Shown here in pieces: positions 12,922 through 41,588 of a DNA stretch of 64,000 nt (position 1 is the stretch's first letter; each line of letters starts with the position of its first letter). Where the stretch lies: positions 32,187-96,186 of IMG/VR virus record IMGVR_UViG_3300044655_001100; one strand, given 5' to 3'. The stretch comes from a virus. The notes under the pieces were generated by a model. That model worked only from the letters and a program-made list of their open reading frames with translations, was not told where the DNA came from and ran no database searches. The translations under genes and the position numbers were made by a program.

Positions 12922-13278
12922 CTACTCAAACATTGGCTTTCTTGGCGGAAGTTCTAATTTTGGCTTTTTCTCTTTTTTAGCAAAACCTCTTGATTGTATT
13001 TTTTGTTTTGAGGGCGCCGCCCCTAAATGTTTGGCCTCTACTCTCTTTGCCTTGGCTATACGAGCCACATCATCTTTAGTCTTTTCAGAATGGCATGGGA
13101 GACATAGCAAGCGGCTATTTTCAAATGTGGGCTCTCCTAAAAGCCCGTCAGCCCTAATGTGATCAATCTGCCATTTCCGGCATGGAAGACCACAAAGATC
13201 ACAATAGGTGACACCATCCTTAGTCGCCGCTTTTATGCGCTCAACTATAATAGCTTTAGTAAAATTACGCCTTACCAT
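12922..13278 (-). CDS. HNH endonuclease
   Basis: CDLCG...IDHI....G...EN..LLC.PCH..KT..D. Confidence 0.88.
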   Translation of the reverse strand: MVRRNFTKAIIVERIKAATKDGVTYCDLCGLPCRKWQIDHIRADGLLGEPTFENSRLLCLPCHSEKTKDDVARIAKAKRVEAKHLGAAPSKQKIQSRGFAKKEKKPKLELPPRKPMFE

Positions 13279-31836: not shown

Positions 31837-32316
31837 TTAGGCTATGGTTCCGTCTTGATAAAATTCGAATTCATTCATTTCGATGTATTCAGATAAATAT
31901 TCATCTGAATCCCTATGCTCAATCTCATTTTGTAAATCTTTAAAGCCCTCCCAAAGGGCAGCATCGAAGGCGCCCTTGCAATCTCCCGTTTCTTTAAAAT
32001 GCTTATAGAAAGCGCCCCATAGGCTACAGTCTAGCCAGTAGCCTGTCGGCATATTGTGGGGGCTAAAATCTTTAAGCTTGCGCCCTCTAAAATTCTCATT
32101 TGTTGCATCTGTCTTATAGTGTAGGGGGCGATAGCCTCCGATTTCATAGTTTACAAGCTTCACATTAAAGAAATCACAGAAAGCCTTGATAGAGTCCATT
32201 TCATCATCGAATTCAAAGTAGCAATTTCCATCATGCCGCCAATTGTTTAAAACCCTTTCTTTGGTTTCCTGTGATAATTCAGAAAATTTATATATCGTTA
32301 CAGTTGCCTGTCTCAT
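31837..32316 (-). CDS. Acidic phage early protein (resembles a family often annotated antitoxin-like)
   Basis: IYKFSELS...KERV...W; DEY..EYI..NEFEF..DG. Confidence 0.65.
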   Translation of the reverse strand: MRQATVTIYKFSELSQETKERVLNNWRHDGNCYFEFDDEMDSIKAFCDFFNVKLVNYEIGGYRPLHYKTDATNENFRGRKLKDFSPHNMPTGYWLDCSLWGAFYKHFKETGDCKGAFDAALWEGFKDLQNEIEHRDSDEYLSEYIEMNEFEFYQDGTIA

Positions 32317-37274: not shown

Positions 37275-37396
37275 CTCGACTCAAGTATAATTAAGATTGA
37301 GGGGAAATTCCTCTCAAATTGAGGGGAAATTATTTAGAGGCAATCCCGCTCTGTCTTGGGCTTGATAATTGCGCACAAATAGCGCAATAATTGCGC

Positions 37397-37639
37397 ATGA
37401 ATATATATAGACGATATCAGCAAACTGACACGCCAAAGCAATCGGCGCCAAAGCCTAGCGCGACAATCGCCAAGCCTAAGACGGATTCCGCTCCAGTAGA
37501 TTTCAAGATTAAGAGGGGCCGCCCTCGAATAGAGGACAAAGGAAAGACTCTTTCTGATTTAAAGCCTTGGCTATCTTTGGGCATGTGTCGCAGAACTTGG
37601 GAGAAGCGCCAAAAAGAGGAGAGGCTAAAGAATGTCTAG
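37397..37639 (+). CDS. Small DNA-binding protein (RGRP + KPW..LG..RRTW)
   Basis: Paralogous to the next ORF. Confidence 0.65.
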   Translation: MNIYRRYQQTDTPKQSAPKPSATIAKPKTDSAPVDFKIKRGRPRIEDKGKTLSDLKPWLSLGMCRRTWEKRQKEERLKNV

Positions 37640-37829
37640 CGATATCGCCAAGCCTTTTGGCAAACGCAAACGGGGCCGGCCTTTGATTGAGGAGCGAGGG
37701 AATACACTAGAGGCTTTGAAGCCTTGGGATGCTTTGGGCATGTCGCGCCGCTCATGGTATCGGCGGCAATCCTTGCGCCCTGGGAAGCATAGCCTAGAAA
37801 GGCTAGAGAAGGCTATTGAGGGGCTTTAG
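37632..37829 (+). CDS. Small DNA-binding protein (RGRP + KPW..LG.SRRSWYRR)
   Basis: Paralogous to the previous ORF. Confidence 0.65.
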   Translation: MSSDIAKPFGKRKRGRPLIEERGNTLEALKPWDALGMSRRSWYRRQSLRPGKHSLERLEKAIEGL

Positions 37830-38184
37830 CATTTTGCGCGGCATTGTTAGCGCCTCGCCGCAATCCCGCATTGATGGCTTATTCTATTGCGCCTCATGCT
37901 ATTGGATATTATCGCAGAGCTATTGCTTCATATCTTTGCTTCACAAAAAGCAAGTAAGCATTTTTCCAGAGGAATGCTCCCTATCCCTATTAGAGAAAAG
38001 GGCCACCCTACCAACCTTTTTTTATTTTATGTGGGGAGCTAGGAGCGCAGCGAGGACTCGCCAGGCCATGAACCAACTTTTTAATTCATTGTAAACAAAC
38101 CATTTGAAAAGTCCAAAATAAAAAGCTATTATACAAAACGAAAGTGCCTTGGAGTCCCACCCAAAATTTTCCCTATAACTTTAG

Positions 38185-39831
38185 ATGAATGTCAACTACA
38201 TGATAGAACAGATTAGGTTACATGAGGGTGATTGTTTGGTTGTCTTGGCTGGTATTGCTGAGGATAGTGTTGATGCTGTTGTTACTGATCCGCCGTATGA
38301 GTTAGGATTTATGGGTAAGTCCTGGGATGACAGTGGGATTGCGTTTTGCCCGGATACATGGCGACAGGTATTGAGGGTGATGAAGCCAGGGGCTCATCTT
38401 GTGGCGTTTGGTGCGCCGAAGAATTATCATCGCTTGGCATGTGCGATTGAGGATGCTGGCTTTGAGATACGTGATAGCTTGATGTGGGTGTTTGGCACTG
38501 GTTTCCCGAAGAGCGCTAATGTCTCGAAGCAGATTGATAAGGCTGCTGGGGCAGAGCGTGAGGTGGTTGGGTTTAGAAATCCTTCTGGATCGGCAGTTGC
38601 GGGAAACGTAGAGCGTGATCATTCAGGATCTCATATATGGACTGGTCGTCTTACAAGTGAAAATGGAATAACAGATGACGCTAAAAATTGGCAAGGCTGG
38701 GGAACAGCGCTTAAACCTGCGTATGAGCCAATCGTCCTTGCACGAAAGCCGTTAAGCGAAAAGACTGTTGCTGCGAATGTCCTGCGCTGGGGAACTGGCG
38801 CATTGAATATTGATGCGACTAGGGTTGAGACTAACCCAGAAGTTGATGACCCTAGACTTGGTGGCAAGGGCTCATGGAAAACAGATAAGGCCGCTAAGAA
38901 TGTTTATGAAGGTGGCTATGCCGGAAAAGAGATAGCGTCATCATCATTGGGCCGCTGGCCAGCTAATCTCTGCCACGATGGAAGTCAGATGGTTTTAGAT
39001 TTGTTTCCGTATTCAAAAAGCACTGGTGGCGATGGCTACAGAAACTCTATGTTTTGCGGCGGCAAGAAAACTGGCGGTCACGGATTAGGCGACGAAGGCT
39101 CAGCAGCCCGTTTCTTTGCTTCATTTAAACAGGATTATGGACAATGGCTAGGCCAAAGCCTCCAGCAATCGCCTGTGAGCGATGTGGAACACTATTCATC
39201 CCTGCAAAGCGAAGCCGCCGCTTCTGCTCTAAGTCTTGCAGTGGAAGCGCCAACGCCGCGATTGGTGCTGAGAAACATAAGCTGCCCGGAACAAAATACG
39301 AGCGTCTCGGAGACGCAATTAAAGAGCGTATGCGAGTTCGTTACTACAGCGATGACGACTTTAGAAAAAAGGTTCTTGCAAGGGCTGCCGCCAGAAAGGC
39401 TTTCCCTATCGGACAGCCATGCCAGTATTGTGGCAATCCAAGAGCCGACAGGCATCATCACGATTACGATAAGCCTATTGAAATTGAATGGATTTGCCGA
39501 AGCTGCCACGTTGCGCACCATAGAGAGGAGCGCGGAACATGGGGGCGGGGATTTAGCTGCACATAAACGCTTTCATTACAGCGCCAAGGCAAGCAAGACA
39601 GATAGAGCCGGAAGCAAACATCCTACAGTTAAACCTGTCAGCCTAATGCAATGGCTAGTTAGAATGGTTACGCCACCCAATGGAACCGTATTGGATTTAT
39701 TTGCTGGCAGCGGCACTACAGGACAGGCTGCTATTAATGAAGGATTTAATGCTATATTAATTGAAAGAGAAGCAGAGTATATTAATGATATTAAAAACAG
39801 ATTATCATTAAAGATTAAAGAAGCAGTATAG
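38185..39831 (+). CDS. N6-adenine/N4-cytosine DNA methyltransferase (beta class) with ~150-aa insert
   Basis: VTDPPY, GRWPAN, SAARFF, HPTVKP, VLDLFAGSGTTG. Confidence 0.92.
   Translation: MNVNYMIEQIRLHEGDCLVVLAGIAEDSVDAVVTDPPYELGFMGKSWDDSGIAFCPDTWRQVLRVMKPGAHLVAFGAPKNYHRLACAIEDAGFEIRDSLMWVFGTGFPKSANVSKQIDKAAGAEREVVGFRNPSGSAVAGNVERDHSGSHIWTGRLTSENGITDDAKNWQGWGTALKPAYEPIVLARKPLSEKTVAANVLRWGTGALNIDATRVETNPEVDDPRLGGKGSWKTDKAAKNVYEGGYAGKEIASSSLGRWPANLCHDGSQMVLDLFPYSKSTGGDGYRNSMFCGGKKTGGHGLGDEGSAARFFASFKQDYGQWLGQSLQQSPVSDVEHYSSLQSEAAASALSLAVEAPTPRLVLRNISCPEQNTSVSETQLKSVCEFVTTAMTTLEKRFLQGLPPERLSLSDSHASIVAIQEPTGIITITISLLKLNGFAEAATLRTIERSAEHGGGDLAAHKRFHYSAKASKTDRAGSKHPTVKPVSLMQWLVRMVTPPNGTVLDLFAGSGTTGQAAINEGFNAILIEREAEYINDIKNRLSLKIKEAV
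39144..39566 (+). CDS. HNH endonuclease nested out of frame in the MTase
   Basis: CERCG..F.......FCS.SC; CQYCG.....HH.DY.KP....W.CRSCH..HH; AGGA 9 nt upstream. Confidence 0.85.
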   Translation: MARPKPPAIACERCGTLFIPAKRSRRFCSKSCSGSANAAIGAEKHKLPGTKYERLGDAIKERMRVRYYSDDDFRKKVLARAAARKAFPIGQPCQYCGNPRADRHHHDYDKPIEIEWICRSCHVAHHREERGTWGRGFSCT

Positions 39832-39833
39832 TT

Positions 39834-41588
39834 ATGGCTTTAAATCGAGCAAAGTTAGTAAGGGCTTATAAGGCTAAGTTAGAGCTTAATAAGCGTGGCT
39901 TACGGGAGCGGCTTGAGAAGAGCTTTAGTGAATTTGTACAGGAAGCATGGCCAGTATTGGAACCCGCCCAGCCTCTTATGTGGGGTAAGGTGATGGAGAT
40001 GGTATGTGACCATTTGGAAGCTGTACGGGATAAGGAGATTACTCGTCTTATCGTGAATATCCCTCCGGGGTTTTCGAAGTCTACGATGTTTGGGGTTATG
40101 TTCCCGGCTTGGATATTTACGACGGAGCCGACGGCGAAGATTTTGTCGGTTGCGCATAACTTGGATTTGGCTCTGAGAGATAGTGTGCGCTGTAGACGGC
40201 TTATTCAGAGTGAGTGGTACCAGGGACTCTGGCCGCATGTGAAGTTGGCGGGTGATCAGAACGCCAAGGCTAAGTTTGAGATTGAGGGGTCGGGAGGGTT
40301 TCGTCAGGCGCTAGCTTCGGGAGCTATCACGGGTGTCCGTGCGGATCATGTGATTATTGATGATCCCTTGTCGGCAACGGACGCTATGTCTGAAGCTATA
40401 CGAAATAGTATGAAGGACTGGATTTTAGAAGCTGTCCCTACTCGACTGAATAATCCTGGTGGCGAAAATCCTTCTACGATTAGTCTCATAATGCAGAGGC
40501 TCCACGAGGAAGATTCAACTGGCGTATTGCTGGATAGAAATCTGGGCTATCAGCATCTTTGCCTTCCAATGGAATATGATCCGGCTCGGCATTGCCAGAC
40601 AATTATTGGAGGCGATTGGCGTACGGAAGAGGGTGAATTACTCTTTGAGGAAAGATTTCCAAGAGAGGTCGTGGAGAGAGATAAACATGCGCTCGGCCCT
40701 TGGGCTACCGCCTCTCAGTTCCAGCAATCGCCAAGTCCTAGGGGCGGGGGATTAATCCTAAGAGACTGGTGGGGATTATACGACGACGAACTCGCTAAAG
40801 AGCAAGGGGTGCGGGATGCTAATAAATACCCCCCGATGGATCTCATCATCTGCTCAGTAGATACCGCCTATACCACTAAACAGGAAAATGATGCATCAGC
40901 TATAAGTGTTTGGGGTGTATGGCAAAAGAGCGGCGGCCAAGCCAGAAAAATCATCTCCTCGTATGCTAACGAAAGTTTGCAAAGAAACGGTAATGTCGTT
41001 GATATGTTTGGCAACCCAATTGAGGTGGTGGACGAACGAGATACCATCCCCTGCGCTATGCTCATGTATTCCAAAGAACTTAGAGTGAATATGCATGGCG
41101 AAGATCCCAAGCAGATGGAAGGGGAATCTATCTCCGACTTCCGTCGCAGAGCCGAAAGCCAGTGGGGGCTCGTACAACATATCGCTGATATCTGCCGGAA
41201 ATATAACGTTGATGTCGTACTGATCGAAGCTAAAGCGAACGGTATCTCCGTCGCACAGGAAATTAAAAGAATTTATAAAACGGCAAATTGGAACGTAAAA
41301 TTAATAAATCCGGGCAATCAAGACAAGGTTGCGAGAGTTTATAGTGTGCAGCCCCTCTTCTCCAATAACCAAGTTTATGCCCCCGATAAAGACTGGGCAG
41401 ATAAACTCATTACCCAAGTATCTGTTTTCCCTCGCGGTAAACATGACGACTTAGTGGATAGTATGAGCCAAGCCCTTCGCTGGCTAAGAGATCAAGGCAT
41501 GTTAATGCGGCCAGAGGAAATTGGATCTAGAATATCTGAAGACATGCTGAGCGGCAGGAAAAACACCCGACCAGTCTACGATGTGTAA
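39834..41588 (+). CDS. terL: Terminase large subunit
   Basis: VNIPPGFSKS, IIDDP, IMQRLHEED, SVDTAY, IEAKANG, DKVAR, FP.GKHDDLVDS. Confidence 0.95.
   Translation: MALNRAKLVRAYKAKLELNKRGLRERLEKSFSEFVQEAWPVLEPAQPLMWGKVMEMVCDHLEAVRDKEITRLIVNIPPGFSKSTMFGVMFPAWIFTTEPTAKILSVAHNLDLALRDSVRCRRLIQSEWYQGLWPHVKLAGDQNAKAKFEIEGSGGFRQALASGAITGVRADHVIIDDPLSATDAMSEAIRNSMKDWILEAVPTRLNNPGGENPSTISLIMQRLHEEDSTGVLLDRNLGYQHLCLPMEYDPARHCQTIIGGDWRTEEGELLFEERFPREVVERDKHALGPWATASQFQQSPSPRGGGLILRDWWGLYDDELAKEQGVRDANKYPPMDLIICSVDTAYTTKQENDASAISVWGVWQKSGGQARKIISSYANESLQRNGNVVDMFGNPIEVVDERDTIPCAMLMYSKELRVNMHGEDPKQMEGESISDFRRRAESQWGLVQHIADICRKYNVDVVLIEAKANGISVAQEIKRIYKTANWNVKLINPGNQDKVARVYSVQPLFSNNQVYAPDKDWADKLITQVSVFPRGKHDDLVDSMSQALRWLRDQGMLMRPEEIGSRISEDMLSGRKNTRPVYDV

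Follow-up and report, generated by a model that had tools for sequence, protein, structure and literature searches.

A probable splicing-free homing element: an HNH-type gene nested out of frame in a phage DNA methyltransferase gene

The window analysed here, 64,000 nucleotides (nt) of a 96-kb IMG/VR virus record (IMGVR_UViG_3300044655_001100, positions 32,187 to 96,186), contains a gene for a DNA methyltransferase that is enlarged by a 459-nt insert with no stop in the host frame, and a second gene, encoding an HNH-type endonuclease, lies within that insert in another frame. We consider it likely that the insert is a hidden homing endonuclease element that is read through without splicing, and that it belongs to the same type as the ShiLan domain, a hidden out-of-frame HNH insertion described in actinobacteriophage DNA methylases (Arsenault, Gosselin & Gogarten 2025, Genes 16:178; PMC11855218) in an arrangement first noted in 2023 (Genes 14:288; PMC9957025). 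The parts of the locus on which this reading depends are the following.

38185..39831, plus strand: beta-class N6-adenine/N4-cytosine DNA methyltransferase gene, 548 codons including the insert
39100..39117, plus strand: left copy of an imperfect flanking repeat, coding for SAARFF; end of the upstream methyltransferase segment
39118..39576, plus strand: the insert, 459 nt or 153 host-frame codons (residues 312-464), host frame free of stops
39144..39566, plus strand: hidden HNH endonuclease open reading frame (ORF), 140 codons, in frame +2 relative to the host, (39144-38185) mod 3 being 2
39556..39576, plus strand: right copy of the imperfect flanking repeat, coding for AAHKRFH
39577..39831, plus strand: downstream methyltransferase segment (YSAKASK..HPTVKP..FAGSGT..), in frame with the upstream segment and near-identical to the insert-free homologue P0003

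The insert and the gene nested in it

The extent of the insert is revealed by homologues that lack it. Protein alignments show GSAARFFYSAKASK as a contiguous stretch in the insert-free relatives P0003 (about 82% identical), P0014 and P0004, in all of which GSAARFFY.AKASK is unbroken, whereas the window has 153 additional codons at that point, past the variable target-recognition region and ahead of the part of the enzyme that binds the cofactor (HPTVKP/FxGxG). Eight short homologues checked as counter-examples (P0014, P0060, P0068, P0072, P0077, P0080, P0090 and P0091) proved to be complete insert-free enzymes, ruling out that they are truncated. The insert boundaries, like those of the co-conversion tract described below, were defined from protein alignments only. 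An imperfect copy of AARFF (39103..39117) recurs as AAHKRFH at 39556..39576 and leaves up to about 4 codons of latitude in where the insert begins and ends. The repeat encodes (S)A(A)RF(F), and the family consensus at the right flank reads SA.RF.Y.AKAS; in an equivalent register, 39109..39567, the HNH stop falls within the last 4 nt of the insert. The host-frame translation of the insert runs from Ala (or Arg) to a final His, and the next residue is Tyr. The length of the insert is a multiple of 3, as are the lengths of all the related inserts, and the HNH ORF takes up all of it but 36 nt, 26 nt before the ORF and 10 nt after it.

The host gene encodes a recognizable beta-class enzyme. Pfam family PF01555 (N6_N4_Mtase) matches the protein in a single stretch, residues 29-537, at an E-value of 2e-30 and 106.7 bits (cut-off 26.7), and DPPY (motif IV, residues 35-38) precedes FAGSGT (motif I, FxGxG, residues 506-511), the motif order of the beta class. 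Foldseek matched the predicted methyltransferase core with CcrM (6pbd) and M.RsrI (1eg2) at E-values of 1e-9 to 1e-8. The AlphaFold2 model of the whole protein, computed with 70 sequences, has a confident core comprising residues 1-210 and 465-548, with low confidence in the variable region (220-340) and at the insert junctions. In the database version of this methyltransferase the start is Met6, at position 38200.

The nested ORF combines an N-terminal CxxC...CxxxC zinc ribbon with the C-terminal pattern CxxC..HH.DY..CxxCH...H, and thus has the catalytic His in HH/HN, the downstream His/Asn and the CxxC...CxxC(H) zinc site of an HNH motif. Invariant in 16 relatives are the zinc-ribbon ligands C11, C14, C28 and C32 and the named residues of the second motif, C93-x2-C96 ... 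H104-H105-x-D107 ... C118-x3-H122 ... H126. Against PHROG profiles the protein matched phrog_2340 ('endonuclease', 1e-10) and phrog_1271 ('HNH endonuclease', 5e-4). AlphaFold2 modelled it with a predicted local distance difference test score (pLDDT) of 85.7 and a beta-beta-alpha unit at residues 101-130, in which the strands (101-105 and 114-118) and the helix (119-130) score above 90. The evidence that the nested ORF is a real HNH-type gene is good but not airtight, the family assignment resting on the PHROG profiles, the conserved motifs and the predicted beta-beta-alpha unit; an active nuclease, and the target that we propose for it below, are what these motifs and the site of insertion would predict.

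Only 13 database proteins belong to the nested HNH family, none of them from a contig longer than 2.3 kb, and a scan of genome contigs with the single HNH protein recovered only a 21-residue fragment. Gene callers hardly ever report such nested nuclease genes, a point of some consequence for phage annotation. Among more distant relatives we noted a free-standing HNH protein of 194 amino acids (L221:1989-2573; 39% identity) with an additional C-terminal extension; immediately after its gene come two ORFs that, by eye only, resemble a class I methyltransferase and ParB.

A candidate ribosome-binding sequence precedes the nested gene.

39131..39134, plus strand: Shine-Dalgarno-like AGGA, 9 nt before the HNH ATG

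The ATG itself is kept in 44 of 45 relatives, where it overlaps a conserved host-frame Trp codon (its first base being followed by TGG), and the simplest reading is that the HNH protein would be translated by independent internal initiation. We also considered -1 programmed frameshifting from the methyltransferase into the HNH frame and rejected it as the main route, because a stop interrupts the HNH frame 5 codons ahead of the ATG, a nearby TTTAAAC is out of register for a canonical slippery heptamer, and the ATG is so rarely lost.

The original prediction for this locus, made from the sequence alone, had described some 150 extra codons between SAARFF and YSAKASK, bordered by RFF and RFH, in a host frame without a stop; a complete zinc-finger HNH with its own ribosome-binding site in a shifted frame; and no intein or intron signature. 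That observation was correct in each detail: the insert comprises 153 codons, its frame is open here and in every relative examined, the borders form the imperfect AARFF/AAHKRFH repeat, the offset is +2 with AGGA 9 nt before the ATG, and neither Rfam, Pfam nor the residues at the insert termini (Ala...His, then Tyr) betray an intron or intein.

Selection on the two frames

The open host frame is a property of the whole lineage. Among the 120 best methyltransferase homologues, each representing one 90% cluster, 53 carry an insert of near-constant length at the same site, uninterrupted, and 54 have no insert; the other 13 were left unclassified, one of the two flanking motifs being missing. An unbiased sample was drawn from metagenomes, where a search using nothing but the HNH alignment yielded 80 loci. 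In every locus whose HNH is at least 44% identical to that of the window (52/52), the gene lies inside a methyltransferase, the host frame is open and methyltransferase motifs are present on both sides. Distant free-standing HNH relatives have stops in the equivalent frame in 23 of 24 cases, at 123 stops per 4224 codons.

To put a probability on such openness, the synonymous codons of the HNH protein were resampled using, for each insert, the codon usage of the adjoining methyltransferase sequence. For 45 distinct elements about 1.9 stops are expected in each and 0 were observed; the probability of an open frame is 0.012 for the window element, its median is 0.12, and the log10 probabilities sum to -48 over the 45 elements, a sum that counts related elements as independent of one another. 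When the synonymous codons of the ORFs themselves were shuffled, the open probabilities were higher than under resampling by flank usage, and much of the stop avoidance is therefore built into codon composition. Judged by these codon statistics, the open host frame is maintained by selection and not by chance. The other out-of-frame option stayed open in only 0 to 0.9% of resamples. The offset of +2 is constant because only the +1 frame of the HNH gene can realistically stay free of stops, and we have accordingly set the offset aside as a clue to mechanism.

What is conserved in the insert is the HNH protein. In tblastn comparisons with related loci the HNH frame is 54-58% identical (E-value 1e-42) and the host-frame peptide 33-41% (1e-6 to 1e-9), and in pairwise comparisons of inserts the corresponding ranges are 36-62% and 19-38%. 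The insert does not, then, behave as a conserved methyltransferase domain, the outcome of a homologue alignment that the original prediction had named as counting against it. Nucleotide differences concentrate at position 3 of the HNH codons, which is position 2 of the host codons (for example 49/45/76 at positions 1, 2 and 3), and across 38 loci the differences per HNH codon position are 0.30/0.27/0.55. These third positions follow the GC content at third codon positions (GC3) of the host with a slope of 0.65, versus 0.21 for true second codon positions. Among hosts of similar GC3, synonymous third-position identity is 0.51 in the HNH ORF and 0.50 in the flanking methyltransferase, and on this ground we rejected selection on the host-frame peptide itself as the main reading of the open frame; the peptide appears almost free of constraint.

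Downstream of the insert the situation is reversed, and it is the host frame that shows the signature of a coding sequence: in 38 insert-bearing loci its differences per codon position are 0.32/0.30/0.58, with an amino-acid identity of 0.59. In insert-bearing alleles, then, translation still reaches the C-terminal part of the methyltransferase and selection continues to act on it. DPPY, HPTxKP and FxGxG are all kept in insert-bearing methyltransferases.

Homing and the alternatives to it

On a tree of 102 methyltransferases from which the insert had been removed, the insert state changes at least 11 times (shuffled mean 34), with at least 7 of these changes forced by well-supported branches. 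The window is the sole insert-bearing row in a clade of 33, the other 32 being insert-free relatives, and this clade has 96% support in the Shimodaira-Hasegawa-like approximate likelihood ratio test (SH-aLRT). The element always occupies one conserved codon position of the methyltransferase, in a lineage spread over environmental phages whose GC3 ranges from 0.37 to 0.88. A short stretch immediately upstream of the insert appears to have a different ancestry from much of the rest of the gene.

39010..39117, plus strand: putative 5' co-conversion tract, host residues 276-311, resembling the insert-bearing homologue P0002 (18/20 in residues 281-300)

The window insert itself also matches P0002. 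Near-identity to the insert-free P0003 extends over methyltransferase residues 21-212 and 461-548, and the segment 213-260 agrees with P0004. Patchy distribution of the insert and a donor-like upstream flank of about 35 codons therefore point to homing.

The methyltransferase apart from the insert is a recombinant of P0003-like and P0004-like parts. This mosaic agrees with the frequent within-gene recombination that one portion of the 2023 report describes for this methyltransferase family (PMC9957025). At the same site, L057:2529-2641 has a 37-codon insert with no HNH, flanked by duplicated GSAARFFY, which may be the remnant of a degenerated element, that is, a loss stage of the homing cycle.

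We propose that a zinc-ribbon/HNH gene was copied into the coding sequence of a phage methyltransferase between GSAARFF and Y.AKAS. The element would contain neither ribozyme nor intein, and codon choice would clear stops from the host frame, which is +1 relative to the HNH. The methyltransferase would then be translated straight through into a protein of 548 residues, 153 of them extra and largely unconstrained, and the HNH protein would be a separate product, started in the other frame at its own conserved ATG. In a mixed infection the HNH enzyme would be expected to cut insert-free alleles at GSAARFF/Y.AKAS, and repair would copy the element together with some flanking sequence. That splicing plays no part, and that the insert-carrying methyltransferase is active, are both inferences from sequence comparison.

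The original prediction had offered, next to a splicing-free element tolerated as an extra in-frame peptide, removal of the insert by unrecognised splicing or ribosomal bypass. The open frame, the conservation of the HNH frame, selection downstream of the insert, patchiness and the co-conversion tract support the former; the latter two are disfavoured, as neither requires an open frame. Group I introns are frequent vehicles of phage HNH genes, and the imperfect flanking repeat could mimic guide-sequence pairing, so that one might picture an intron, self-splicing or processed by the host, that contains the HNH ORF and is removed as RNA, its open frame being incidental. We regard this as highly unlikely, since the 26 + 10 nt outside the ORF leave no room for a ribozyme core, Rfam returned no family at E <= 1 for positions 38000..40500 and none at gathering score in 20 related loci, and the model explains neither a host frame open in 52 of 52 loci nor insert lengths that are always multiples of 3. 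The lack of an intron or intein signal in the window insert is nonetheless absence of a signal and not proof. An atypical intein would account for the open frame, and bypass between the RFF and RFH codons would make use of the similar codons on either side, but removal or skipping of the insert at the level of protein or translation strikes us as scarcely credible. The insert has no Cys, Ser or Thr at its start and no His-Asn at its end, Tyr being the first residue after it; the only Pfam domain in the window methyltransferase is N6_N4_Mtase, with no Hint or intein domain; and a host-frame peptide that is so poorly conserved, with middle codon positions that drift with host GC3 at a slope of 0.65 (0.21 for true second positions), is incompatible with an autocatalytic domain. 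Bypass, for its part, would need a 459-nt hop lacking the stop that follows the take-off codon in gene 60 of phage T4.

The setting of the methyltransferase gene raises a different kind of explanation, in which the HNH protein has ceased to be a homing enzyme or never was one.

39834..41588, plus strand: terminase large subunit gene, outside the element (Pfam Terminase_6C, 4e-10)

This gene starts 2 nt past the methyltransferase stop and 268 nt beyond the end of the HNH ORF, and HNH genes beside terminase genes are described, in at least part of one published study, as known packaging factors (PMC3592412). The nested HNH could thus be a partner of the phage, either a terminase-associated packaging protein or the nuclease half of a nested restriction-modification-like pair; that the free-standing relative in L221 also adjoins methyltransferase-like genes fits the latter. 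A homologue of the window terminase is adjacent, however, in only one other HNH-bearing locus (L224), so a general association with terminase was tested and rejected, and a single conserved site, the repeated changes of state on the tree, insert-free nearest relatives and a donor-like flank are signatures of homing. We judge a partner role to be unlikely. It is somewhat less likely still that the HNH gene and the methyltransferase gene around it make up a mobile unit akin to restriction-modification that protects itself, in which the methyltransferase shields the carrier genome from the enclosed nuclease and the open frame couples the two. Such a unit might give a functional reason, beyond tolerance of insertion, for the presence of hidden nucleases in methyltransferases. 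Plain homing is favoured over it because of the site-specific, patchy and co-converting behaviour of the element.

Several observations weigh against reading the insert as a passive stretch of host protein that hides a homing endonuclease. The AlphaFold2 model of the methyltransferase gives host-frame insert residues 341-430 helices and strands at a pLDDT of 63-80, so that the insert is possibly more than a passive loop. Pfam HNH (PF01844) matches the nested protein only at an E-value of 0.038 and 11.8 bits, below its cut-off of 21.4 bits, and NinG, at 17.6 bits, is likewise below its own. Foldseek returned no match to the HNH model at E <= 0.001. HNH enzymes do lead the list of structural matches, but all are weak, including the top one, the Gme HNH nicking endonuclease 4h9d (Z 4.5, root-mean-square deviation 4.9, 67 residues), and a search of PDB sequences with the HNH profile gave only zinc-ribbon proteins (L24e, FCS and YacG) at E-values of 0.05 or higher. 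A Shine-Dalgarno-like match of at least 4 nt precedes the HNH ATG in only 19 of 45 loci, compared with 16% of random positions, and the summed probability of open frames carries the assumption of independence stated above. The predicted structure bears on one further alternative, true dual coding, in which the host-frame peptide is a selected, folded module of the methyltransferase; in its favour one can add that the GC3 of the HNH ORF tracks that of the host with a slope below 1. We do not read much into the moderate pLDDT in view of the selection tests. It may stem from pseudo-conservation imposed by the other frame, and the low host-frame identity, the absence of a Pfam domain in the insert and synonymous third positions that are no more conserved than in the flank make dual coding very unlikely. 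A ShiLan-type homing endonuclease element that is read through without splicing thus remains our preferred explanation.

Related elements and comparison with known systems

Hidden HNH genes occur at other sites in the same methyltransferase family, after ANVSKQ in Escherichia phage BUCT618, after ALKPS in Mycobacterium phage Pollywog and before HSTVKP in L019 and L023. These belong to other HNH (PHROG) families, again with an offset of +2 and an open host frame, and Taj gp79 contains an in-frame LAGLIDADG-like insert. The hidden genes of BUCT618, L019 and L023 lie at L001:1896-2501, L019:2499-2900 and L023:2457-2885, respectively; in the BUCT618 record the methyltransferase alone is annotated.

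In three diverged relatives (L191:1900-1925, L224:370-395 and L194:1540-1585) the methyltransferase frame is broken exactly between HPT and VKP, where a 5-nt TGAC(C/G) gives a stop after HPT; 2 nt further on, a GTG opens the rest of the enzyme in the -1 frame. Possible readings are a conserved split of the 'genes in pieces' kind, a recoding site or the scar of another element, and the position is near the insertion site of the L019/L023 HNH lineage. L194 has, in the same methyltransferase gene that carries an open HNH element at the RFF site, a second nuclease gene (L194:725-1498), with zinc ribbons and a C-terminus that by eye resembles Vsr/DUF559; it follows a stop in the host frame, and the methyltransferase gene is hence split. 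Elsewhere in the window, an ordinary free-standing HNH gene (12922-13278, minus strand; 118 amino acids, Pfam HNH at 33.5 bits) lies among small early genes. Two neighbouring small ORFs upstream of the methyltransferase (37391-37829, plus strand; 82 and 65 amino acids) are paralogues of each other and share the pattern RGRP...G.TL..LKPW..LGM.RR.W..RQ.

Homing endonuclease genes that reside in essential or useful genes are usually thought to need an intron, an intein or a splitting of the host gene, and the ShiLan-type arrangement amounts to a fourth way, with the nuclease in one frame and the host frame kept open. Splitting is exemplified by mobE in nrdA of Aeromonas phage Aeh1, where a free-standing homing endonuclease gene reportedly divides its host into 'genes in pieces'. 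As in the window, a homing endonuclease gene with no intron or intein lies inside a coding gene whose function is retained; nrdA, however, is made as two separately translated pieces, whereas the window host frame runs through. The relative L194 does show a split of that sort, though with another nuclease and elsewhere in the gene. Inteins and group I introns with homing endonucleases resemble the window element in that they invade a conserved motif site-specifically, are patchily distributed and take flanking sequence along by co-conversion. They differ from it in that Pfam and Rfam detect no splicing machinery in the window element; moreover, an intein shares the reading frame of its host, which the window endonuclease does not, and the host frame of the element is kept open, unlike that of a gene with an intron. 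The bypass cassette of T4 gene 60 with mobA has a 50-nt gap, a stop after the take-off codon and matched GGA codons. There too, a homing endonuclease is tied to an untranslated or unusual stretch within a coding gene, but the stretch in the window is 459 nt long, open and apparently translated.

The closest parallel is ShiLan itself. The original prediction rated the arrangement as new, an assessment overtaken by its publication in 2025 (PMC11855218), and what is new here is another insertion site, another HNH lineage and other hosts. The window element shares with ShiLan the existence of insert-free relatives, an in-frame insert free of stops, a zinc-finger HNH in the 'third' frame, the lack of an intron or intein signal and a patchy distribution. 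In both, the ends of the insert resemble the flanking methylase sequence, as the ShiLan authors observed, and in both function is deduced, that of ShiLan in mycobacteriophages having been proposed without experiments (PMC11855218). Pollywog, a relative of the phage Starcevich named in that paper (PMC11855218), allows a direct comparison within the same host family. Its gp67 aligns with the window protein at about 53% identity and has a large insert with a hidden HNH ORF at a different site, between ALKPS and YEP, compared with GSAARFF and Y.AKAS in the window; the Pollywog insert comprises 202 codons and that of the window 153, and the best HNH profiles are PHROG 20891 and 2340, respectively. 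Because both site and best profile differ, we regard the window element as a separate lineage of the same kind. The ShiLan authors proposed a leaderless GTG start for the nuclease, whereas the window lineage has a conserved ATG, often with a Shine-Dalgarno-like motif, and its hosts are environmental phages spanning the GC3 range given above and not mycobacteriophages alone. It is also a large lineage, found across many environments in at least 53 methyltransferase clusters and 52 metagenome loci, a size that permits statistics absent from the published description of ShiLan, namely on selection in each frame, on the nearly unconstrained peptide and on selection in the downstream methyltransferase. 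A quantitative case for read-through is thus what the window lineage adds to the ShiLan type, and its compact 459-nt element, with a conserved ATG, offers a convenient experimental model for this way of living inside a gene.

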